Below are positions 41,067 to 55,664 of a stretch of DNA of 64,000 nt, one piece after another. The stretch's first letter is position 1. Every line of letters begins with the position of its first letter. Made by a program: the position numbers and the translations under genes. The DNA is from Dehalococcoidia bacterium (GTDB lineage: Bacteria > Chloroflexota > Dehalococcoidia > Lucifugimonadales > SAR202-VII-2): NCBI GenBank assembly GCA_965263165.1, contig OZ253584.1, positions 1,013,785 to 1,077,784 of the forward strand. Reading direction: 5' to 3'. The notes under the pieces are model-generated. The model was not told the origin of the DNA. It saw only the letters and a list, made by a program, of their open reading frames with translations, and did no database searches.

Positions 41067-41344
41067 ATGTGAGCGGGCGCGCCACTACCCAAAGAGCCGC
41101 CCCGGCAACCGCCAACGCTTTCCTGACCAAGGCTCTCCCTCCCTTTTACCCTCTACCGCGCTCCACTCCCCGGCCGCCATCGGATCAGCCGGCGAAGTAG
41201 ATCCTGACGACCGCTATCGCCTCTTCCTTGCTCATGACGCCATTGAAGTAGTCGACGGCCGCCGCAACGGCCTCGTCCCGGTCGATGGCCTTGGACGGCA
41301 CTGGAATTAGACTGGGCAACCACTTATGTCTTACGCTACTGACT

Positions 41345-42487
41345 ATGCAGATGAGCCAGATCGAGCTAGTTAGCACGGGATCACGCCTAGCCGAAGTCGT
41401 CGATCATATATCGAGGACGCCACGAGTCGCAGTCGACATCGAGTCGAACGGGTTCTTCAGATATCACGAGCGCGTCTGCCTCGTGCAACTCGCATCAGCC
41501 GAGACCGCCTTCCTCGTCGATCCGCTGGCGATAGACGATCTCCGACCGCTTGGTGACCTTCTCGGTGACCGATCGGTGGAGAAGGTCTTCCATGCCGCCG
41601 ACTACGACCTCCGTAGCCTTGACAGGGACTGGGGATTCCGGGTAAACAATTTGTTCGACACCGGTATTGCCGCCGCCTTCGTTGGCTCCGAGCATCTGGG
41701 CTTGCAGTCTGTAGTGGAGGAGCACGCGGGGGTGAAGTTGGCCAAGCTCCGGAGACTCCAGCGGTCAGACTGGACGATGCGGCCTTTAACTCCTGAAGCG
41801 CTGAAGTACGCAGCAGACGACGTTCTACACCTTCTGCAGGTCCGCGAAGCACTATCGGCACGGCTAAAGGAGCTATCGCGGTTCGCATGGGCGAAAGAGG
41901 AGTTCGCGCGTCTGGAGAACGTGCGGCATACGCCTCCCGACCGCGAGCTGGCCTTCCTTTCGATCACGGGTAGCCATGACCTGGATGGCAGGAGTTTGGC
42001 TGTCCTGCGCTCCCTGTTCCAATTTCGCGAACAAGAGGCCATCCGTCTCGATCGTCCGTTCTTCAAGGTGATATCGGATTCTGCACTGGTCAAGCTGTCG
42101 TCCGAGCCCGTGGCCGATCTCTCGGCCGTCAAAGGGCTGGGTCGGTTCGGACGTCCGCCTGCCGACAGAGGCCTGAAAGCCGCAATCGAAGAAGGGCTCA
42201 GGTCTCGCCCCGTGACTTGCCCGAAGCGGACGCGGAGTGAAAAGACATGGAGTCCCGCTGAGCGAGAGAGGGTCAGGACTCGCTTTCGGAGTCTCAAGAC
42301 GTGGCGCAGCGAGTTAGGCAGAGAACTGCGATTGGACCCAAGTCTATTGTGGCCGGCTGTGAGCCTGGAGCGCCTGGCTCGGTGGCCCTGTAGCCTGCAC
42401 TCCGAAGTCGTTAGTCCTAAGGTCCGGAGCTGGCAGGAGCGTGAGTTTGCCGGGGCGCTGAGGAGAGTTCTCGCAACTCTGAGTTGA
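41345..42487 (+). CDS. rnd: Ribonuclease D-like 3'-5' exonuclease with HRDC domain (start approximate)
   Basis: DEDDy motifs VAVDIES, FHAADYD, FDT, YAADD; C-terminal region REQEAIRLDRPFFKVISD. Confidence 0.88.
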   Translation: MQMSQIELVSTGSRLAEVVDHISRTPRVAVDIESNGFFRYHERVCLVQLASAETAFLVDPLAIDDLRPLGDLLGDRSVEKVFHAADYDLRSLDRDWGFRVNNLFDTGIAAAFVGSEHLGLQSVVEEHAGVKLAKLRRLQRSDWTMRPLTPEALKYAADDVLHLLQVREALSARLKELSRFAWAKEEFARLENVRHTPPDRELAFLSITGSHDLDGRSLAVLRSLFQFREQEAIRLDRPFFKVISDSALVKLSSEPVADLSAVKGLGRFGRPPADRGLKAAIEEGLRSRPVTCPKRTRSEKTWSPAERERVRTRFRSLKTWRSELGRELRLDPSLLWPAVSLERLARWPCSLHSEVVSPKVRSWQEREFAGALRRVLATLS

Positions 42488-42579: not shown

Positions 42580-45500
42580 TCAGGCGGCTACCCAGCCCTC
42601 CGACAGAACCTCGGCCTGCTCAAGGACGGTTATTGTCGCCTTCTCCTGCTTGTCGGGCGGGTAACCGTGCTTGCGCAGGATGCGTTTGACCAGCGCCCGT
42701 AGCTTGGCGCGGACGTTCTCCCGCAGCGTCCAGTCGATAGTGACGTTGTTCCGCACGGTGTCGACCAGCTCGCGGGCTATGGCGTGAAGGGTCTCGTCGC
42801 CCAGCACCTGCACCGCGCTGTCGTTGGTTTCCAGCGCGTCGTAGAAGGCCAACTCGTCCTCGCTCAAGCCCAGATGCTCACCGCGGGCGTTGGCCTCCCG
42901 CATGTCCTTCGCAAGCTGTATCAGCTCCTCGATGACCTGCGCCGCCTCGATCGCCCGGTTTTGGTAGCGCCGCAGCGTTTGCTCCAGCATCTCGGCGAAG
43001 GAGCGGGCCTGCACCACGTTCTTGCGGCGCCGGGTGTGCAACTCCCCCTTGAGCAGCTTCTGCAACAGCTCCACGGCGAGGTTGCGCTGAGGCATTCCCT
43101 GCACCTCGGCCAGGAACTCGTCGGAGAGCACCGAGATGTCCGGCTTGTCCAGTCCCGCGGCGGCGAAGATGTCCATCACGCCTTCGGACGCCACCGCCCG
43201 GGAGATTATCTGCCGCACGGCTAGGTCCAGATCCTCCTCGGCGCGGGCCTCTCCCGTTGCCCGCTTCGACAGCGCCGCCCTCACCGTCTGGAAGAATCCC
43301 ACGTCGTCCCGAATACGAAACGTCTCCGGGTGCGGCACGGCCAGGGCGAAGGCTTGCGACAGCTCGCGGACGGCGTTCAGGCAGCGTTCCTTGCCGTCCT
43401 CTTGGGCCAGGACGTGCTCTTGAGCGGGCGGCAGAAGTCCCAACCGTTCCTGTGCACCACCCGCAGTCCACTTGGACCTATCGAATCCGTGAAACAGGGC
43501 GCAGCACACCTCGTACTTCTCCAACATCACCGCAACCGCTTCCTCTTGGTCCAAGGCGGTGCGACCGGTGCCGCCGCTCTCGGTGTACGTGGCCAGGGCT
43601 TGCTTGAGGTCCTGGGCCAGCCCCAAGTAGTCCACCACCAAGCCGCCCGGCTTGTCCTTGAAGACCCGATTGACGCGGGCGATAGCCTGCATCAGCCCGT
43701 GTCCCCGCATCGGCTTGTCCACGTACATGGTGTGCAGGCTGGGCGCGTCGAACCCCGTGAGCCACATGTCCCGCACAAGCACAATCTGGAGTGGGTCGGC
43801 GGGATCGCGGAAGCGGTTCGCCAACGCCTCCCGACGAGCCTTGTTCCTGATGTGCGGCTGCCAGTCCAGTGGATCGGAGGCTGAGCCGGTCATCACCACC
43901 TTGACGCTTCCCTGGTCGTCATCGTCGTTGCGCCAGCCGGGGCGCAGGCGCACCAACTCCCGGTAGAGGTCGATGCAGATGCGCCGGCTCATGCAAACGA
44001 CCATCGCCTTGCCGTCCAGCGCCTCCAGCCGTTGCCCGAAGTGGGTCACGATGTCCTCGGCAATCTGCTTCACCCGCTTCTCCGCGCCGACGACGGCCTC
44101 CAACTGAGCCCATTTGGTCTTGAGCCTCTCCCTTCGCTCCACCTCCTCACCCTCGGTGGCCTCCTCGAACTCCGGGTCTATGTTCGGCCTCTCCTGCTCG
44201 TCCAGGGCCAGCTTGGCGAGGCGGCTCTCGTAGTAGATGGGCACCGTAGCCCCGTCCTCGACGGAACGTTGGATGTCGTAGATGCTGATGTAGTCTCCAA
44301 ACACGGCCCGCGTGTTGGCGTCCTGCAGCTCGATGGGCGTTCCCGTGAAGCCGACAAACGAGGCGTTGGGCAGGGCGTCCCGCATGTGACGGGCGTAGCC
44401 GTCGATGAAGTCGTACTGGCTGCGGTGGGCTTCGTCAGCGATGACCACGATGTTCCGCCGCCCCGAGAGGGTGGGGTGGGAATCGCCCTTCTCTTCGGGG
44501 AAGAACTTCTGGATGGTTGTGAAGACTATTCCCCCGGCGTTCACCGACAACTTGCTGCGCAGGTCGGCCCGACTCTCCGCCTGGGCTGGCGGCTGGCGCA
44601 GGAGGTCCTGGCAACGGGAGAACGTGCCGAAGAGCTGGTCGTCCAGGTCGTTGCGGTCCGTGAGGACCACGACGGTCGGGTTCTCCATGGCCGGCTCGCG
44701 GACAATGACCCCGGCGTAGAACGCCATGGTCAGGCTCTTGCCTGATCCTTGGGTATGCCACACCACCCCGATGCGTCGGTCGCCAAGCTCTCCGCCGGGT
44801 TTGTGGCTCGCCTCGTACCGCCCGCCCTCCTCGGCGATTCGGACTTCGGTGCGTTGCAGCTTCGCCGCCCGCAGGGTCTCATCCACCGCAACCTTGACGG
44901 CGTGGAACTGGTGATACCCGGACATCTTCTTGACCAGAGCGCCGCTGCCGTCGTCGTCGAAGACGATGAAGTCGCGGACCAGGGCGAGGAAGCGGCCCGG
45001 CTCAAAGACGCCCTCCAGCATCACCTGCAACTCGGTCATGCGAGTGTCAGCCAGCGTCTCCCCGGTTACGGTGCGCCAGGGCTTGAACCACTCCCGACCG
45101 GAGGTCAGCGCGCCGATACGGGCCTCGGTCCCGTCGGAGACCAGGAGCGCCTCGTTCATGGAGAACAGGGTTGGCAGCTCCGCCTTGTAGGTCTGGAGTT
45201 GCTGCCAGGCCGTCCAGATGGTGGCGTCCTCGTCCACAGGGTTCTTCAGCTCGATGACGCCTAGGGGCAGCCCGTTGACGAACAGCACGACGTCCGGCCT
45301 GCGGGTATTCCTATTCTCGGTGACGGTGAACTGGTTGACGGCCAGCCAGTCGTTGTTGGCGGGGTCGTCGAAGTCGATGACCTTCACCTGCGCTCCACGG
45401 ATGCGCCCCTCGCCGTCCCGGTGCTCCACTGTCACACCATCTACGAGCATCCGGTGGAAGGCGCGGTTGCGAGCTTCAAGCGTTGAACCTTCGGAGCGGG

Positions 45501-45723
45501 TGAGCTTGCGGAAGGCGTCGTCTAGCGCCGACGAAGGCAGGCTGGGGTTCAACTCGGCGAGGGAGTCCCGCAGCCGACGCTCCAGCACCACCTGCCCATA
45601 GTCGGAGCGCTCGGCGCCGGGCGTGTCCGGCGCAATGTCCGGGCCGTGCGCCACCTGCCAGCCGAGGCCCTCTAACCAGGCCAGGGCAGCCTGTTCGACG
45701 TCGGCTTCGGTGAGGGTGGTCAT
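42580..45723 (-). CDS. hsdR: Type I restriction endonuclease R subunit
   Basis: [20 protein letters not shown] nuclease motif, [40 protein letters not shown]. Confidence 0.98.
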
Positions 45724-46052
45724 GGGGATACTCGTCGTTCGCCGCGGCGCTCATTGTGCATTACGTTTTCACGACAAGCGCTGTTGTGCATCATGACATG
45801 GCATGCTGTGATCTTCAAATCGCGTTGTCTTCGGTTGGTGGGACGCAACCTACTCGCTGCCTTCCGCCAGATGGAGGAGCCTGAGAAACACCAGGAGTAC
45901 TGACCGCCTCCCTCGGGCTTCACTCAGTACTGCCAACATATGTCTGTCGCACAGGACCCTTACGATCATGTAGGGTGGAACAGTCAACCGGCCTATCCGT
46001 CAGATTCTATCCAAGAAAGGGTGGATTGACTCGAATTCAGCGTAAGCCCTCG

Positions 46053-47201
46053 TTAGGTGTTTTCGTCCATATCATCCCCTTGCAGTTGAATCCAGACAGC
46101 TCCTCCGGGCGAACGAATCATTCGGCTATCGCCACTAATCCAGCCAAATGTATCAATCCCATTTTCATGAATAATGCCTACTTTCAAGTCTCCTAGTTGA
46201 AGCTCTCTTAATGAGTAACATCGTCTTTGGCCAAGGCGTGTATTGCAAACTGCGTGGCCCCAAGTCACTTTTTGAGGAATGTGGTGACCATCACTGTACA
46301 CCAACGGCTCCAAGTGAAAGAGGTTGACAATCGTTGATCTGGTTGTTCCCTCTATCTGCAGAGGGGCATTCTCGAGAGAACTCTCATCCTCAAAGGAAAC
46401 CATGTCATGTAGCTCATTGTACCGAACAAATCTCAGGCACAATGGACAGCAGGTCATTCCTCGTCGAACGGCACTAAGGTGTTCAAGTGCCTCCTCAGAT
46501 CCGAGGTCCTCTGACCCTAGTATCACGTGCAACTGCTCTGCTTGGTTCGTCGTGTACGGACTTCCCGATGTCTTTATGATTAGCCATGCAAGCACGCATT
46601 TGCATAAATAGTTGTCATTCATGTCGGCATACTCTGGCGCAAATACACCTTGTGGTGGACCTTCTTCTCGTTGTGGCTTAGCTCCCGTTCTTGGAAGTCG
46701 TAGCACGTAATGTCCATCATCGACTACTCCTTCACCACGGGCTGCAACCTCGCTGCCGTCCTTCAGAAGTCGTCGCGCATACCAATCCGGCATTGGAGGG
46801 AGTGATTCAAAACTCTCATGGCTTCTATACAACACAAAAGCGCTGTCTCCAACTCTGACTTCACTAGGCTGCAAGAATTCGTTTCTTGGTTCAAACTGTC
46901 CTATGAAGTATTGTTCAGGAAGCAAACGAATGATATACCCGTCGGCGAATCGCGATAGGTCCAAACCCGTGACTCGTTCGTAAGGGATAATCACTTGATT
47001 CGATCTGAGGACATGATTCTGATAGGCACCCTTCCTTCCGCCACGAGGAGTTGCGAAGCCTGCCTTGGAGAGTTTAGCCTTGTCCTTGTCGTCAAAGAAA
47101 TCCCATGCTTCCGTAGGATAAGGGTTGTGCCCACCGGCATGACCTGCGTTACGCCGACAGCCTCCCTGCCCACATAGAGTCATCTTTGAAGCGCTACCCA
47201 T
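46053..47201 (-). CDS. BstXI-like (HNH-type) Type II restriction endonuclease
   Basis: KAGFATPRGGRKGAYQNHV, GHYVLRL, EGPPQGVFAPEYA, LAWLIIKT, TCCPLC, NLFHLEPLVY, WGHAVCNTRLGQR; collinear with R.BstXI as remembered (not searched); RBS GGAGAGG; lower GC than its flanks. Confidence 0.8.
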   Translation of the reverse strand: MGSASKMTLCGQGGCRRNAGHAGGHNPYPTEAWDFFDDKDKAKLSKAGFATPRGGRKGAYQNHVLRSNQVIIPYERVTGLDLSRFADGYIIRLLPEQYFIGQFEPRNEFLQPSEVRVGDSAFVLYRSHESFESLPPMPDWYARRLLKDGSEVAARGEGVVDDGHYVLRLPRTGAKPQREEGPPQGVFAPEYADMNDNYLCKCVLAWLIIKTSGSPYTTNQAEQLHVILGSEDLGSEEALEHLSAVRRGMTCCPLCLRFVRYNELHDMVSFEDESSLENAPLQIEGTTRSTIVNLFHLEPLVYSDGHHIPQKVTWGHAVCNTRLGQRRCYSLRELQLGDLKVGIIHENGIDTFGWISGDSRMIRSPGGAVWIQLQGDDMDENT

Positions 47202-47234
47202 AGGCTACCTCTCCGCGAATGTTACCGGTTCGGC

Positions 47235-48572
47235 TCATTGCAATCTCGTTGCTCCTGATACCAGCTCAGTCAACAGCAAATCTCGCTCTGCGATCAGCAT
47301 ACGCGAAACGATTTCGTTGGCAACGATTCTGTTGTGGAGCACGGACGCGGAGTCATGCCACGCACTAAGCATGATTGGACTAGGTACTAGTATTGGAATC
47401 TGCCGGAAGTGGCTCTTGCTAATCTCCAAAAATGTAGACCCGTTAGCATGGTTCACTATCTCGTCGTGAAAGGCCTTGCACCAATGGAGCATGAACAGGT
47501 TTGAACTCCCCTTCCTCGGCGGCATGGCAATGAACCCCTGATTGATAGCTACTGGAACTTCAGTGACCGCTAGATAGCCAATAGGTGCCCGTGAGGAAAG
47601 GAGTAGTGTACCGGGAGGAAGGAGACCCGAACCTATCTGCCGCAAACCCTCATCAGTGATCAGACGCTCAGTATTCAGCAGCACCGGCGTGGATAGAGCC
47701 GAAAGGTCCTTGGGCGTCGCCCAGCAATGAATGCCTTCTTCCCAGTACTTGGCTACCTTGGTGCTGGGTGTAGTGCCTCCAACCACGTCCACCGCCACCC
47801 CTAACGGCTTCGCCTCCCACCCCTCCGGGATGTCTCCCAACTCCGACGGCACGAGGCGGTCTGGGAAGAGGGACCAGAGGGCCGACGGGAGGTAGGGGTC
47901 GCGGCCCTCCAACTTGGCGCAGACGGGGCCGAAGTCGACAAACCAGTCCTTGAACAGCGCCCGCGCCATCGCTTCCAGCGTCTCGTTCATGCGACGGTTC
48001 AGCTCGATCTTGTCGTCCAGCGTGCCGAGGACGTAGGCGATGGCTCGCTGCTCAGGGAGGGGTGGGAGGGAGAGGCATATCTCCTTAAGAGAGGATCCCG
48101 ATAGCTCAGGGAAAGTTGTACCAGAGCCACGCAACTCGAGCTCGCTGCTGTTAGCAATCAGCCAGTAGTAGAGGTACTCGGGGATGCAGCCGTCTCTCAA
48201 AATGAGACTTCGGAAGCCCTGATTGGTCGCTATCGGATTCTGTGCAATCGCTACGTATCCAATCGGAGCACGTGTTGTAAGCAGCACCGCTCCATGTGGA
48301 AGCAATTTAGCCGAGCAGATGTCAAGTCCCTTTTGAGATAGATTCCTCGCGCCGTGTGAAATGTAGCGATCGTGAGGGCCTGCAAGGTCTCTAGGGGTCA
48401 ACCACGGGACGTTTCCGTCGAAGTTGTCAGGGTCTCTCGTCGATGGGGTGCTACCGCCTACGACCTCCGCAATTTCCCCCAGCATCACCTCACGCCACTC
48501 GCTAGGCGGCGTCAGCTCGGCTCGCTCCTGTACTCCAGGGCGGCGGGTGGTCGCGTCCGTCCGGTCGGTCAT
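47235..48572 (-). CDS. hsdS: Type I R-M specificity subunit with two homologous TRDs
   Basis: TRD1 - central conserved region ([10 protein letters not shown]...LFKDWFVDF...IPEGW) - TRD2 architecture. Confidence 0.95.
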
Positions 48573-48576
48573 CTGC

Positions 48577-48798
48577 CTAGGCCCTCGCAGCCGAAACTTC
48601 TACAACGTCGGCGGTGACCTGCGGCTCCGGGATGGATTCGCCGTCTTCACGCATCCCTTCGATGTGGAACTCAATGGCGTTCCGGATCTCCTCCAGTAGT
48701 TCCTCGCGGGTGCTGGCGGTAGCCACGCAGCCGGGCAGGTCCGGCACATAGGCCGCGTAATTGTTGGGACTCTTTTCAATCACGATGGTGTATTTCAC
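48577..48798 (-). CDS. hicB: HicB-family antitoxin
   Basis: From GTG: [33 protein letters not shown]...EDGESIPEP. Confidence 0.92.
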
Positions 48799-48998
48799 GA
48801 CGCCGATTCCTCCTTCAGGCCGGACTGTTTCAATATGCTGTTCCACGTGCCTGGGGGCAAGTCATCCGCTGGCTTCCCAGGGACGGTCACGCGACCAGGT
48901 TTGAGTGGGTGCTTGAACTGGTGGTGGCTTCCCCTGGTTCGGATCAACCGCCATCCGTCCTCCTCTATCAATTGTATGGCCTCCCTAACCTTGGGCAT
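48795..48998 (-). CDS. hicA: HicA-family mRNA interferase toxin
   Basis: [16 protein letters not shown]...[10 protein letters not shown]...VTVPG...[12 protein letters not shown]; overlaps the hicB start by 4 nt. Confidence 0.93.
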
Positions 48999-50607
48999 AT
49001 TCGGATCGTCCCGCTCCAAACCCCAACCGGGTCAGGTTGTCCTCGATGGCCGAGTCCAGCCGCTGCGCCTCGGCCTGCTGCTCCCGCCACTGGGCGGAGA
49101 GCCGGGCCATCTTCTCCTTGAAGGGTTCCCCGTCGTTCTCCTGCGGCGCCGCGCCGACATAGCGGCCGGGAGTGAGTACGTGGCCGTGCTTGCGGATGTC
49201 CTCCAACGAAGCGCTCTTGCAGAAGCCGGGAACGTCGGCGTACTCGCCCGGGCCATCCTCGCCGCGCCAGGCGTGGTACGTGTCGGCGATGCGGGCGATG
49301 TCGTCATCGGTCAATTCCCGGTGGGTGCGGTCCACCATGCGGCCCAGCCTGCGGGCGTCGATGAACAGCACCTCGCCCCGCCGGTCGCGGTGCTTGCCGC
49401 CTCTGCGGTCCCTGGCCACGAACCAAAGGCAAACGGGTATCTGCGTGGAGTAGAAGAGTTGGCCGGGCATGGCCACCATGCAGTCCACCAGGTCCGCCTC
49501 GATGAGGTTCTTCCGGATCTCGCCCTCGCCCGACTGGTTCGACGACATGGAGCCGTTAGCCAGGACGAAGCCGGCGGCGCCGCGCGGCGACAGGTGGTAG
49601 AGGAAGTGCTGCACCCAGGCGAAGTTGGCGTTGCCCGCGGGCGGGACGCCGTGCTGCCACCGCTTGTCGTCCCGCAGCCGCTCGCCGCCCCAGTCGGAGA
49701 CGTTGAAGGGGGGATTGGCGAGGATGTAGTCGGCCTTCAGGTCGGGGTGGCGGTCGTCATGGAAGCTGTCGCCGTGGGCAATGTTGCCCTCTATCCCGCG
49801 AAGCGCCAGATTCATCTTGGCCAGCTTCCAAGTGGTGTGGTTGGACTCCTGGCCCCAGATGGAGATGTCGCCTCTGGCCTTCCCGCCGTTGCCATTGCCG
49901 GTGGCGTGGGCATGGATGAACTCGATCGACTGGACGAACATGCCGGAGGAGCCGCAACAGGGGTCGTAGACGCGGCCCTGGTAGGGTTCCAACATCTCCA
50001 CCAAGAGCTTGACGACGCAACGCGGGGTGTAGAACTCGCCGCCCTTCTTGCCCTCGGCGCTGGCGAACTGGGAGAGGAAGTACTCATACACACGTCCCAG
50101 CACGTCTTTGGAGCGGGCTTCGGCGTCTCCAACTTGGATGTTCGTGATCAGGTCGATGAGCTGGCCGAGGCGGGTCTTGTCCAGGGCGGGCCGGGCGTAG
50201 TCCTTGGGCAGCACGTCCTTGAGCACCGGATTGTCCCGCTCGATGGCGGCCATGGCGTCGTCCACCAGCTGGCCGATGGTCGGCTGTCGAGCCTGGGCCT
50301 TGAGGTGCGGCCAGCGGGCCTCCGGCGGGACCCAGAAGATGTTCTCGCCGCGGTACTCGTCCATGTCCTCGGAGTCATACCCCTCCCCCGTCTTCGACTC
50401 CAGCCAGGCGTGCAACTCCTGAAAGGCGTCGGAGATGTACTTGAGGAAGATGAGGCCGAGGACGACGTGCTTGTACTCGGCGGCGTCCATGCTGCCCCGG
50501 AGGGCGTCGGCCATCCGCCAGAGCTCGGCCTCGTAGCCTGTCAGGGCGCCGCTGCTCGTTGCGGCGTCCGCGCCGGAGGCCGTCCGTCTCCGTGGCACAG
50601 TCGTCAT
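48985..50607 (-). CDS. hsdM: Type I R-M methyltransferase M subunit (m6A)
   Basis: [43 protein letters not shown]. Confidence 0.97.
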
Positions 50608-50647
50608 GATGCCTCACCCCTTCGTTTGCTCTTGGAACGCCACCTGA

Positions 50648-50848
50648 CTACTTCGCGTAGGGCGTTCTTGCCCCCGGTCCGTATCCGTGGGGGACCACGA
50701 AGCCGGGGACGCCGCCGTACTCGACGGAGATCACCGCGGACTCGGCGGTCTTGTCGTGGCCGAGCAGGAAGAACGAGCCAATCGCCGTCTCCGCGCCACC
50801 GCCGCACCAGCATTCGCCGGTTGGGAGCAGGCGTTTGGTTGAAGCCAT
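50648..50848 (-). CDS. Small hypothetical protein with CWCG motif, probably degenerate
   Basis: MASTKRLLPTGECWCGGGAETAIGSFFLLGHDKTAESAVISVEYGGVP...HGYGPG; resembles a remembered CxCGCG...F..GHD small-protein family. Confidence 0.4.
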   Translation of the reverse strand: MASTKRLLPTGECWCGGGAETAIGSFFLLGHDKTAESAVISVEYGGVPGFVVPHGYGPGARTPYAK

Positions 50849-51175
50849 TCTCATATCTCCCGCAACGAGACTATTGGAATGCCCGTGGATACTGTTCAAG
50901 GATGCGTTCCTAGGCGCTTCCGAGTCAATGCGGAAGGGGAGTTAGATGCCCCGCGTCCCTCCGTATGGCCCTGCTCAGGGGTGTTATCACCCTTCTGCTC
51001 GCCGCTCGCAGCCGCTCTGACCAGAAATCCTTCAGCGCCTGCCCCAAGAATGGCTATGATACAATGGCCAGCAGCCACTACATTCGCCGTTTCCCTTGTT
51101 CACAATGGGAAGTTGGGCAAATGCCAACCACAGCAGACGACAGATGCGGCGTACCGAAGGAAAGAGGACGCTAAC

Positions 51176-51343
51176 TTGGCGCTCTCTGACCGACAGCTGC
51201 TCGATTCCCTCAGCCGGATGCCCTTCGCCGACTCGGCTGAGCCGGAAGGTGCCTCCGGCGAGCCGCATGCGACGATCCACCGTGGGCTGACCGGCCTGCT
51301 GGCCGACGGCATCGTCGGGCGCGTGAGCCACGGCGCCGCTCAC
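51176..51343 (+). pseudogene. Relic N-terminal winged-helix fragment, possibly of a replication-relaxation-type protein
   Basis: LSDRQLLDSLSRMPFADSAE...HATIHRGLTGLLADGIVGRVSHG, then loses coherence; family is from memory only. Confidence 0.3.
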
Positions 51344-51538: not shown

Positions 51539-51843
51539 GCTGGGCAGAATCAAGAACCTTCGTGTTGTGGCTCACCTTGGGTCTGTGACCTTGGGTCGCT
51601 CTTGCCCCATCAGGCGAGAGTCCGCCGCGGGCTAACGGGCCAGGCTCACCGCAGCCTCCCCCTGCGGCTTGGGTAGGCCGCCCGCCGCCGCTGCCCGCGG
51701 GGGATTAGCGCGAGAACCAGCCGCTGTCCCATCCAATACCCCTGCGCCAGCGTTTTGATTGTTAAGTCTTGCCTACTCTTGAATCCGCTTATGGTACCCT
51801 TGCCAGACGACCCCAATCATCGCGTATCGAGGGAGGAAACACA

Positions 51844-52281
51844 GTGAACTGCCCACGTTGCGATGTCGCTCTGAACGAACAATCCCATATGGGGATTGAG
51901 GTTGACCATTGCCCCGAGTGCAGGGGCCTCTGGCTGGACTTCCATGAAATGGACCAGCTTGAGGACCATGCCATGGATGACGACGAGCGCAAAGGGATGA
52001 CGGAGTACGCTCGCCGAGCGAGCGACATAGCTTGTCCCAAGTGCCACGAGGTCATGGAGACCTTTAACTACCGGGCCCACAACTTGGCCATTGACCACTG
52101 CAAGAACCAGCACGGCTATTGGCTGGACGAGGGCGAGGAGAAGAGGGTCCTGGAGCTGATGGAGCAGCGCGTCCAAGACCTGAAACGCTCCTCTTCCGCC
52201 GAGGAACAGTGGTCGAAATTCATGACGCGCGGTAAGCCCCGCTCGTTCCTATCCAAGGTCAAAGACCTGTTCAAGGGCTAA
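51844..52281 (+). CDS. Double zf-TFIIB zinc-ribbon protein
   Basis: From GTG: MNCPRCD...IEVDHCPECRGLWLD and CPKC...IDHCKNQHGYWLDEGE; RBS GGAGG. Confidence 0.85.
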   Translation: MNCPRCDVALNEQSHMGIEVDHCPECRGLWLDFHEMDQLEDHAMDDDERKGMTEYARRASDIACPKCHEVMETFNYRAHNLAIDHCKNQHGYWLDEGEEKRVLELMEQRVQDLKRSSSAEEQWSKFMTRGKPRSFLSKVKDLFKG

Positions 52282-52958: not shown

Positions 52959-54104
52959 ATGGCATTTGGGGAATTCCAGAATAAGATGTATCACATACAG
53001 ATTACACCTAAGGCTTATGAACCTCCCCACAAGCGGGCAGAATGGGAGTACGATCTTCCATTTGAAGAACTTGAGCAGCGCTTTCTCGTTCCCTATCGTA
53101 ACGCAAAGCCGATGGTCGTCAACGGCAGAGCGATTATGGCGGATGACATCTATCGTGTTAGAGTATACGAGAGTGAGCGAAAGATAGGGCATCTTGTCCA
53201 AAAATCAATGGACATGCTGACGGACGTCACAAAGCGATTCATCAGGGAACCTTCTGGCTATGGTGTGGACGAAAGCAACGCCGTTGTCCAGCAGGCTCAC
53301 TCAACTACGTCAATGCGAGTCTTCATTAGTCACAGCAGCAATGATGTTGGCGTAGCAAAACTTCTCATTGAGCTTCTGCGAAAGGCATTGCACCTTAGAA
53401 GTGACGAGATCCGATGTACCAGCGTCGACGGGTATCGCATGCATGCAGGCTCACCAACCGACGAAACGCTTCGGGCCGAAGTTCACGATGCGGAGTTGCT
53501 AATAGGTCTCATTACACCCGATTCGATGAGGTCTGTTTATGTGATTTTCGAGCTTGGTGCGCGCTGGGGGGTAGAGAAACCTATGATTCCCCTGCTCGCA
53601 TCGGGTGCAGCCCCAGAACATTTGGGAGGTCCGTTAGCTGGAATCAACTCGCTAGACGCCCGAGAAGGCGGTCAAGTTCATCAGCTTTTGGAGGAGGCCT
53701 CGAAGCATTTGAGTGTTGATCTTGATAAGCCATCAAGCTACACAGCCGCAGTTAACGAATTGGTGCAGAAGTCAGCCGAATTGGCAACCACTATCGAGCA
53801 ACAATCGTCCGCCACTGAGCCATTGCAACTCTCGAAGGAAGCGCGGGAACTTCTGGTTGAAGCAACAAGGGATGAAGGGAATAAGGGTATGATTCTTATG
53901 ACTGAGGCAATGGCGGGCTTGAGCATCAAGACAAACGACAAGAGTTTTGTGCAATTGGGTGATAGCAGATCAGAGGCTAAATGGAAGCAGGCTCTGGATG
54001 AACTCTATGGTCACGGTCTGGTAGAAGACGGGAACGGCACGGGAAGAGTTTTTAAGGTAACACATAGGGGATACGAATGTGCCGATGCTCTCGCCAGTCC
54101 ATAG
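52959..54104 (+). CDS. TIR-domain protein with extra N-terminal and C-terminal winged-helix-like domains
   Basis: RVFISHSS...LLIGLITPDSMRSVYVIFELGARWG (catalytic Glu retained); C-terminal KWKQALDELYGHGLV...FKVTHRGY. Confidence 0.82.
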   Translation: MAFGEFQNKMYHIQITPKAYEPPHKRAEWEYDLPFEELEQRFLVPYRNAKPMVVNGRAIMADDIYRVRVYESERKIGHLVQKSMDMLTDVTKRFIREPSGYGVDESNAVVQQAHSTTSMRVFISHSSNDVGVAKLLIELLRKALHLRSDEIRCTSVDGYRMHAGSPTDETLRAEVHDAELLIGLITPDSMRSVYVIFELGARWGVEKPMIPLLASGAAPEHLGGPLAGINSLDAREGGQVHQLLEEASKHLSVDLDKPSSYTAAVNELVQKSAELATTIEQQSSATEPLQLSKEARELLVEATRDEGNKGMILMTEAMAGLSIKTNDKSFVQLGDSRSEAKWKQALDELYGHGLVEDGNGTGRVFKVTHRGYECADALASP

Positions 54105-54434: not shown

Positions 54435-55664
54435 ATGGCGATTCGGCTGATTGAAGAGGGATGGGATAAGGAATTCGCTGAGGCTCTGAGCGCCGACGCC
54501 AGCGAACTTCGGATCATCTGTCCGTTTATGAAAGTGAGCGTCCTTGAGAGTCTATTGGGGTATCGGCCTGACAGCGTTAAGGTTATCACCCGGTTCAACC
54601 TCCCGGACTTCGCCGAAGGCGTCAGCGATGTCGCCGCCTTGCGGAAGCTGGTCGATGCCGATGCCAAGGTTCGCGGCGTGCGCAACCTCCACGCCAAGCT
54701 GTATCTTTTCGGCGCTAGCAGGGCGATTATCACCTCTGCCAATCTTACCAAGGCTGCCCTTAGCCGGAACTATGAGTTCGGCATGGTTGCCGAGGATGCG
54801 ACGATCATCACGGACTGCCGGGCCTATTTCGATAGGCTATGGCAGCGTGCCGGTAACAACCTCCGGCGGGATCAGGTCGATGCGTGGGACGAGACGGTCA
54901 CCGCACATCGTTTACGGGGCGGCCGCCTCAACCAGACCGCCGGCCTAGGCGACTTTGGCGTCGATGTTGGCTTTGCCGATCTACCACCTGCTAGAGTGCC
55001 GACCGTCGTCGCCGATGCATCGCAGGCTTTCGTAAAACTCCTCGGTAAGGCCGACAACCGAATCCCGCTGTCATCCTGCATCATTGACGAACTTGAGAGA
55101 GGGGGTTGCCACTGGGCCGCATGCTATCCTAGGGATAGGCGGCCGAGGAGTGTCAGGAACGACGATGTTATCTTCATGGGTCGACTCACCCGGAACCCTA
55201 ATGACATCCGTATCTTCGGTCGCGCCATAGGAATGAAGTACGAGCTAGGAAGGGACGATGCGACAGCCGCAGATATCATACGGCGGCCCTGGAAGAAGGA
55301 TTGGCCGCGATATATCCGCGTACATCAAGCCGAGTTCGTCGCGGGTACGATGGAGAACGGCATCTCGCTTAACGAACTGATGGAAGCGTTCTCGGCAGAT
55401 TCATTCGCGTCTACACAACTTAATTTCGCCCGAGGTGAAGGTAACACCAATCCCCGGAGGGCATATTCACAGCAAGCCGCTGTCAAGCTTTCTGATGAAG
55501 GTCGCTCATGGCTTGACGAACGGCTTCAGGTGGCATTTGAAGCTCATGGCAAGATCACCCAAGACGCGCTCGATAAACTGGACTGGCCGGATCTGCCGAC
55601 ATTAACCTCGCAATTGACGTCGCCGATGACCAATGGTTCGAGACGTGGTAGTCCCGCCCCATGA
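54435..55664 (+). CDS. PLD-superfamily nuclease with an uncharacterised C-terminal domain
   Basis: IICPF, single HxK motif NLHAKLYLF followed by ITSANLT...NYEFG; separate C-terminal ~200 aa. Confidence 0.8.
   Translation: MAIRLIEEGWDKEFAEALSADASELRIICPFMKVSVLESLLGYRPDSVKVITRFNLPDFAEGVSDVAALRKLVDADAKVRGVRNLHAKLYLFGASRAIITSANLTKAALSRNYEFGMVAEDATIITDCRAYFDRLWQRAGNNLRRDQVDAWDETVTAHRLRGGRLNQTAGLGDFGVDVGFADLPPARVPTVVADASQAFVKLLGKADNRIPLSSCIIDELERGGCHWAACYPRDRRPRSVRNDDVIFMGRLTRNPNDIRIFGRAIGMKYELGRDDATAADIIRRPWKKDWPRYIRVHQAEFVAGTMENGISLNELMEAFSADSFASTQLNFARGEGNTNPRRAYSQQAAVKLSDEGRSWLDERLQVAFEAHGKITQDALDKLDWPDLPTLTSQLTSPMTNGSRRGSPAP

Follow-up and report, generated by a model that had tools for sequence, protein, structure and literature searches.

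A Dehalococcoidia bacterium genome (GenBank assembly GCA_965263165.1, contig OZ253584.1) carries a restriction-modification (R-M) operon in which the classical Type I gene set, hsdR, hsdM and hsdS, all matched over its full length, is accompanied by a gene for a homologue of the Type IIP endonuclease BstXI. This raises the question of which DNA site is read by HsdS, the specificity (S) subunit of the operon, and which nucleases its methyltransferase serves. We analysed the operon within a 64,000-nucleotide stretch of the contig (positions 1,013,785 to 1,077,784 of the forward strand, here called the window) together with its relatives in other genomes. Our results indicate that HsdS is probably a BstXI-type specificity subunit, forming a CCA-N6-TGG methyltransferase that would be shared by two nucleases. 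As judged from protein and DNA comparisons, the recognition site is very likely to be symmetric and the half-site is likely to be CCA, while a spacer of six nucleotides (nt) is somewhat favoured.

HsdS gave two matches to Pfam Methylase_S (E=1.2e-48), and a BLASTP comparison of its N-terminal half with its C-terminal half returned 52 identities over 149 positions (35%) with one gap (E=1e-23). By this measure its two target recognition domains (TRDs) are truly homologous, far beyond chance, as had been proposed in an earlier interpretation of the DNA letters (the sequence-only reading), and all five of the block pairs that were quoted there could be found in the translation. These blocks (G-TP-T, W-TP-DL, RAP-G, NQGF and GSTF-E) turned out to be class motifs of all TRDs linked to BstXI-family endonucleases, and they also occur in TRD2 of the Methanocaldococcus jannaschii S subunit 1YF2 and in the HsdS proteins of Deinococcus and Methylococcus. 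Used as evidence, the motifs show homology of the TRDs, and not identical specificity, a caveat that applies to the use first made of them. With its homologous TRDs of one class, HsdS departs from the two dissimilar TRDs of classical Type I subunits, and with both TRDs in one 445-amino-acid (aa) chain it departs from the single-TRD S subunits of AhdI-like systems. The best solved relative of HsdS is 1YF2 (E=2e-67, both TRDs aligned), the closest solved structure, which likewise has an antiparallel coiled coil with a TRD at each end.

BstXI is a CCANNNNN^NTGG Type II endonuclease served by a Type I-like methyltransferase made of modification (M) and S subunits (PMC4335341; PMC3874165), and subcloning showed that the M and S genes beside the endonuclease gene encode its methylase (PMC4335341). 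S.BstXI has two TRDs, described as ‘similar but not identical’, each of which reads CCA, and this leads to CC(m6A)N6TGG (Fomenkov et al. 2015, PMC4335341; Loenen et al. 2014, PMC3874165); the single TRD of M.XcmI, which reads CCAN9TGG, resembles them (PMC4335341; PMC3874165). The sequence-only reading had tentatively assigned TRDs of this class to CCA half-sites, and the S.BstXI literature bears this out. As a reference for the authentic system we used Bacillus sp. X1 (locus L056, CP008855; protein P0242, ‘Type II restriction enzyme BstXI’), where S.BstXI (392 aa) and M.BstXI (511 aa) are encoded on the strand opposite to R.BstXI, with no hsdR within 8 kb.

Compared with R.BstXI, the window endonuclease shows 52% identity over 381 aa (E=6e-148). 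HsdS aligns with S.BstXI through both TRDs, which follow the same order, at 44% identity (E=6e-107), and HsdM is 41% identical to M.BstXI. Window TRD1 and S.BstXI TRD1 share 54% identity. The helix of the central conserved region (CR1; EQ...WFVD) aligns with that of S.BstXI without gaps and is of equal length, and the C-terminal conserved region (CR2) is 2 residues longer in HsdS, at the TRD2/helix junction. The earlier statement that spacer length cannot be predicted from sequence was therefore too strong: the equal CR1 helix, a CR2 that differs by 2 residues and the homology of the endonuclease favour N6. The operon thus combines an R.BstXI homologue, a two-TRD S protein homologous to S.BstXI and an HsdM-like subunit. 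It differs from the BstXI system, a pure Type II system, in that all genes lie on one strand, a hicAB-like pair separates hsdM from hsdS, the linker between CR1 and TRD2 is longer, TRD1 and TRD2 are less alike (35% vs 45% identity in S.BstXI) and an hsdR of 1047 aa is present. Because this hsdR is intact, we regard the window operon as a dual-nuclease variant of the BstXI prototype.

Further evidence came from the neighbourhoods of related endonucleases. An alignment of the endonuclease family was scanned over one genome per species, which yielded 49 loci from many phyla, and two metagenome loci were added. At 33 of the 45 loci that keep an S gene, the partner next to the BstXI-family gene is a half-S protein with a single TRD (204-310 aa, mostly 233-257), whose gene usually overlaps the start of the endonuclease gene. 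As a half-S protein dimerises, only a symmetric site can be specified, and an active homodimeric endonuclease in turn means that the protecting methylase must cover a symmetric site. It is these half-S partners of most relatives that support the palindromic site proposed at the outset. Where the partner has two TRDs, both belong to the class in all 12 cases (11 surveyed and S.BstXI). The half-S design is shared with the ‘Type 1 1/2’ enzymes M.AhdI, M.PshAI and M.BsaBI, in which a Type II endonuclease relies on distinct M and S subunits that recognise a symmetric gapped palindrome, and a single-TRD S acts as a dimer (2M+2S) (Loenen et al. 2014, PMC3874165), whereas in the window S two TRDs are fused in one protein (2M+1S). 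At one locus (L045:1574-3844), hsdM and a half-S lie in a single 756-aa frame beside a BstXI-like gene, an arrangement that may be natural, as an M~S fusion of the M.XcmI/M.DrdI type, or an artefact of sequencing or of calling open reading frames (ORFs).

HsdR follows the endonuclease gene in at least 25 of the surveyed loci, its start usually lying between -31 and +25 nt from the endonuclease stop. Among half-S loci it is present at 22, with no HsdR within at least 2 kb downstream at 10 and at one apparent M~S fusion, and with two loci left uncalled. For two-TRD partners, HsdR is present at one surveyed locus (L001) and in the window, with no HsdR within at least 2 kb downstream at 10 loci and none uncalled; where the S region is cut off upstream, three loci have HsdR, none lacks it and one is uncalled. 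L001 has the same M-S-R(II)-HsdR gene order as the window, at 61-76% identity.

The endonuclease itself matches the PADLOC Type II model REase_II, which is derived from REBASE (433 bits), and is one of a family, at least 615 sequence clusters in size, that has members carrying Pfam RE_BstXI. In a 2008 classification the BstXI family was listed under ‘unknown superfamily’. When the family profile was compared with PDB sequences nothing significant was found (best E=0.068, which looks spurious). An AlphaFold model of the window enzyme, generated from an alignment of 125 sequences (pLDDT 90.6, pTM 0.88), had a sole significant fold match in the PDB, DraIII (4L0K, E=9e-5), with TM-scores of 0.24 when normalised to the query and 0.43 when normalised to the target, about 150 of 382 residues aligned and 17-19% sequence identity. 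DraIII reads CACNNNGTG and is partnered by a Type II methylase of the conventional kind. A homodimer of the HNH group, DraIII cleaves the gapped palindrome CACNNN^GTG to leave 3' overhangs (4L0K; Zhuo et al. 2014, PMC3996161), with Zn sites at C4/C22/H28/C32 and C157/C160/H198/C201 and catalytic residues H183 and N202 (PMC3996161). When compared by the order of motifs, the invariant or near-invariant residues of the window endonuclease (C10, C15, H21, H25; C252-x2-C255; H296; H316-x2-C319-N320) parallel this layout of an N-terminal Cys/His Zn site, a CxxC, a catalytic His and an HxxC-N. On the strength of the model, the BstXI fold appears to be of the DraIII-like HNH (beta-beta-alpha-Me) type, with two predicted Zn sites.

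A bias in CCA(N)nTGG, the check proposed in the sequence-only reading, was sought in 724 kb from 46 de-duplicated loci that bear the family (L004-L052), using the in-phase neighbours N3 and N9 as the reference. CCA-N6-TGG was observed 146 times vs 228 for the reference, making it the most depleted of 638 gapped-palindrome combinations (z=-4.4); locus by locus, 31 lie under their own reference and 9 over it (sign test p=0.0007). This pattern suggests that CCAN6TGG specificity is conserved across the BstXI family. Separately, and as a post hoc observation, TCA-N8-TGA is scarce in the window, with 1 site vs about 11-12 expected (Poisson P ~1e-4 before multiple-test correction); in the same TCA-Nk-TGA series N2 and N14 are also low (3 each) and N5 and N11 are normal. 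This scarcity may be due to chance, or to avoidance caused by another R-M system of the host.

An experimental precedent exists in Vibrio cholerae, where a BstXI homologue carried by ICEVchInd6 (50% identical to BstXI) does most of the phage restriction and HsdR contributes, deletion of either nuclease alters phage restriction, and loss of the single CCAN6TGG site of PLE1 restored transduction (LeGault et al., bioRxiv 10.1101/2020.12.16.423150). The authors treat these genes as ‘several R-M systems’, and a shared methyltransferase goes undiscussed (bioRxiv 10.1101/2020.12.16.423150). The hotspot-5 cluster of ICEVchInd6, an integrative and conjugative element (ICE) of the SXT type, has the gene order of the window, with hsdM, S, BstXI-family endonuclease and hsdR, but its S is a 234-aa single-TRD half-S on a conjugative element, where the window S has two TRDs. 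A cluster of this type was recovered at loci L030, L031 and L048 and in E. coli XH1815 (NZ_CP069386.1; 99.7% identical DNA), as M, 234-aa half-S, ‘BstXI family restriction endonuclease’ and R genes adjoining mobH and traD; the 90% cluster of its endonuclease contains V. cholerae, Providencia ICE, Proteus and Shewanella entries. There is a strong, not exact, case that the L030 enzyme represents the tested ICEVchInd6 protein AIM16524.1, based on cluster membership and a matching identity to BstXI, AIM16524.1 itself being absent from the listing. The ICE-type endonuclease is 52% identical to BstXI and 51% identical to the window enzyme. In a neighbour-joining tree, BstXI and the ICE-type enzyme fall on opposite sides of the midpoint root, with the window enzyme inside the ICE-side clade. 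Since two CCAN6TGG enzymes, BstXI by biochemistry and the ICE-type enzyme by genetic evidence, lie on opposite sides of the root, CCAN6TGG is by parsimony the ancestral specificity. When the literature was searched for methylomes with CCAN5-7TGG, the only results were cloning uses of BstXI and the study of LeGault et al.

Several observations weigh against a CCA-N6-TGG assignment for the window itself, and they have to be set against two main alternatives. One is that the site is symmetric with a half-site or spacer that has co-drifted, for example to CCA-N5-TGG, CCA-N7-TGG or another trinucleotide, which we consider unlikely. Type II specificities are able to change at 50% identity, and the characterised enzymes share only 51-53% identity with the window endonuclease and 41-54% with the window TRDs. 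Window TRD2 is no closer to S.BstXI TRD2 (41%) than to S.BstXI TRD1 (42%), and TRD1 carries GSGTTF (that is, SGTT) where at least 90% of endonuclease-linked TRDs carry NGST. The linker from CR1 to TRD2 is about 26 aa longer than in S.BstXI, in addition to the longer CR2. The window endonuclease scores 20.7 bits on Pfam RE_BstXI, under the 25-bit cutoff; eight relatives, 51-67% identical to it, reach 35-59 bits, in one case over the whole profile. Finally, depletion was seen across the family loci and not in the window alone, where CCAN6TGG occurs 32 times vs 31 (naive) or 41 (in-phase) expected, the 64 kb giving low power for such a test; three of these sites lie inside the R-M cluster itself, and the CCA(N)nTGG spacer series in the window shows codon-phase periodicity only. 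On the other side, two enzymes that act on CCAN6TGG are themselves only about 52% identical and stand on opposite sides of the tree, the depletion in the family is specific to CCA and to N6, and the CR1 helix has kept the length that it has in S.BstXI.

Resemblance between TRDs does not decide the matter. The two CCA-reading TRDs of S.BstXI share 45% identity, and the TRD of the ICEVchInd6-type half-S is 40-44% identical to them, 41% to window TRD1 and 39% to window TRD2. On these comparisons known CCA readers are only 40-45% alike, with the window TRDs in or near that range. 1YF2 provided the background for this comparison: its TRDs share 28-38% identity with those of the window and up to 46% with S.BstXI TRD1, and against window and BstXI-class TRDs overall its TRD2 scores 32-46% and its TRD1, which lacks the W-TP and RAP-G motifs, 23-40%. 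Because this class background, broadly 30-46%, overlaps the range of CCA readers, TRD identity by itself cannot settle specificity.

The same background gives some room to the second alternative, in which the operon is an ordinary asymmetric Type I system whose TRDs share a fold class only, and the BstXI-like gene is inactive, decaying or harmless cargo in the slot between hsdS and hsdR. The 35% identity between window TRD1 and TRD2 falls within the 23-46% of the 1YF2 comparisons, so the earlier step from similar TRDs to similar half-sites is insufficient on identity alone and draws its support from the genomic context. In Deinococcus sp. S9 and Methylococcus, S proteins whose TRDs are both 62-65% identical to those of the window S belong to ordinary M-S-RhuM-R operons that lack a BstXI-like gene, so the TRD pair is not tied to the endonuclease. 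Endonuclease linkage as the reason for conservation of the TRD pair across phyla can be ruled out on the same grounds; these plain Type I enzymes may themselves read a symmetric site. The RhuM-family gene fills the hsdS-hsdR slot at L053:9326-9802 in Methylococcus and at L054:9326-9805 in Deinococcus sp. S9. Moreover, of the 120 closest homologues of the window S, 94 keep two TRDs of the same class and 26 have TRD1 replaced by an unrelated TRD. The foreign composition of the endonuclease gene, described below, and the 330 nt that separate it from hsdR, vs the tight coupling in most relatives, also fit this alternative. Against it, the endonuclease ORF is of full length and retains 48 of 48 family-invariant residues, including both predicted Zn sites and the HNH His and Asn; an active homodimeric Type IIP enzyme would kill a host protected by an asymmetric methylase; off-class TRDs are absent from all 12 two-TRD S proteins linked to the endonuclease; and L001 has kept the gene order. 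Taken with these points, an asymmetric system appears improbable.

It is more improbable still that two independent systems are present, the endonuclease being guarded by an unlinked methyltransferase and HsdMSR having its own specificity: our view covers 64 kb of the genome, without an exhaustive methyltransferase scan, and LeGault et al. speak of several systems, but the endonuclease gene lies between hsdS and hsdR, its start overlaps the S stop in relatives, the M and S genes adjoining BstXI were shown by subcloning to be its methylase, and no second methyltransferase was found in the window cluster or in the PGAP-annotated XH1815 copy of the ICE cluster, which has a single M gene.

In the BstXI-type system that we favour, the methyltransferase would consist of two HsdM and one HsdS, with the TRDs held at opposite ends of an antiparallel coiled coil in approximate two-fold symmetry. 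Each TRD would read CCA, so that the adenines of CCA-N6-TGG become methylated, and this one enzyme would protect the host from two nucleases of the same operon. The first, the BstXI-family homodimeric HNH Type IIP endonuclease, would cut inside unmethylated sites, and the second, HsdR, would dock on the same M2S core and cleave after ATP-driven translocation. HsdR has Pfam HSDR_N, SWI2_SNF2, T1R_D3-like and T1RH-like_C domains and matches TIGR00348 (595 bits) and, over its full length, PADLOC REase_I (1124 bits); with a SWI2/SNF2 motor and an HSDR_N nuclease domain it is apparently an ATP-dependent translocase/nuclease, as predicted from these matches. HsdM scores 742 bits on PADLOC MTase_I and 386 bits on a 511-position MTase_II model. 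That both nucleases are active, and that one methyltransferase serves them both, is predicted.

The base composition of the operon points to how it may have been assembled. In 200-nt windows, GC content is about 0.50-0.56 in the TRDs vs 0.64-0.67 in the central region of hsdS, and GC at third codon positions (GC3) is 0.59 in TRD1, 0.60 in TRD2 and 0.58 in CR2 vs 0.91 in CR1, so the lower GC of the TRDs that had been remarked on by eye is real. Amino-acid composition can be ruled out as the cause of this dip, as it sits at third codon positions. GC3 is 0.90 in hsdM, 0.87 in hsdR and 0.45 in the BstXI-like gene. The TRD dip recurs in the Deinococcus sp. S9 homologue (locus L054), and at L001 and L024 the S and endonuclease genes have lower GC3 than hsdM and hsdR. 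In the endonuclease tree the window and L001 enzymes nest among half-S systems, while their S proteins resemble the plain Type I lineage more than the half-S proteins of their nearest endonuclease relatives. The GC3 mosaic and this mismatch of lineages between S and endonuclease speak for assembly of the region by recombination, and suggest that the TRDs and the endonuclease gene were recombined into a resident high-GC Type I backbone.

Table 1 Positions of the R-M operon genes and of the parts of hsdS in the window.
Feature	Position	Strand	Extent	Description
hsdM	48985..50607	-	540 aa	Gamma-class N6-adenine methyltransferase subunit; Pfam HsdM_N + N6_Mtase, E=6.7e-108
hicA-like toxin ORF	48795..48998	-		GSHHQFKHP...TVP...GT motif recognised by eye; directly upstream of hicB-like ORF
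hicB-like antitoxin ORF	48577..48846	-	89 aa	Pfam HicB_lk_antitox, E=1.7e-13
hsdS	47235..48572	-	445 aa	Specificity subunit; ATG start; two same-class TRDs
TRD1 of hsdS	48063..48506	-	aa 23-170	
CR1 of hsdS	47829..48062	-	aa 171-248	Central conserved region: coiled-coil helix + linker
TRD2 of hsdS	47382..47828	-	aa 249-397	
CR2 of hsdS	47235..47381	-	aa 398-445	C-terminal conserved helix + stop codon
BstXI-family Type IIP endonuclease homologue	46053..47201	-	382 aa	
hsdR	42580..45723	-	1047 aa	Type I translocase/nuclease subunit, apparently intact

The remaining features of the neighbourhood are as follows (Table 1). The hicAB-like pair is inserted between hsdM and hsdS (48577-48998, minus strand); for the hicA-like ORF the listed start is a TTG at 49019, the internal ATG at 48998 being the likelier start, and the ORF shares about 14 nt with the 3' end of hsdM. 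In L001, the closest dual-nuclease relative, the same slot holds an MNT/HEPN-type pair (NTase_sub_bind and Polbeta), and many homologues of the window S are called as fusions with NTase domains. The 330-nt gap between the BstXI-like gene and hsdR (45724-46052) has lower GC, where most related loci have -31 to +25 nt, and a convincing ORF, promoter or terminator could not be found there; when 45500-51200 was scanned for promoters and terminators, the counts did not exceed those of shuffled controls. A 692-aa ORF antisense to hsdM (48835-50913, plus strand) has no family match and is most likely spurious, as is common in GC-rich DNA. Just beyond hsdM, the plus strand encodes a Zn-ribbon protein at 51769-52281, a TIR-domain protein at 52959-54104 and, at 54435-55664, a nuclease of the PLD family whose NgoFVII-like match is weak, and together with the R-M operon these look like a defence island. 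RNase D is encoded on the other flank (41285-42487).

An S subunit with two CCA-type TRDs that leads to CCA(N)nTGG has already been published for BstXI, and its main use here is to allow confident annotation; if the site is confirmed, the system would also offer a BstXI isoschizomer of high-GC origin. More broadly, BstXI-family endonucleases usually sit in Type I-like operons, about half of which also carry hsdR. The dual-nuclease arrangement, with an apparently shared methylase, is common among relatives and has been touched on experimentally in ICEVchInd6, and the papers searched contain no explicit description of it as a shared-methylase system. We give even odds to the idea of a widespread dual-nuclease class of R-M system, in which one Type I-style methyltransferase, its S being a half-S dimer or a two-TRD protein, licenses two nucleases of different mechanism at a common symmetric site; the proposed division of labour, with the HNH Type IIP enzyme cutting in the site and the HsdR motor cutting at a distance, is as evenly balanced. 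The window and L001 would be, with equal chances for and against, a rare sub-form in which a two-TRD HsdS of ordinary Type I lineage has taken the place of the half-S. The case is similarly poised for S and endonuclease together being a portable specificity cassette able to enter resident Type I backbones by recombination, a behaviour that would account for the GC3 mosaic.

If a single methylase does guard against two nucleases, this would bear on the interconversion of Type I and Type II systems, and a phage that escapes one nuclease would still be restricted by the other, which fits the ICEVchInd6 genetics. For the family as a whole, half-S and two-TRD S proteins as interchangeable partners of one endonuclease family amount to a natural experiment on TRD fusion.

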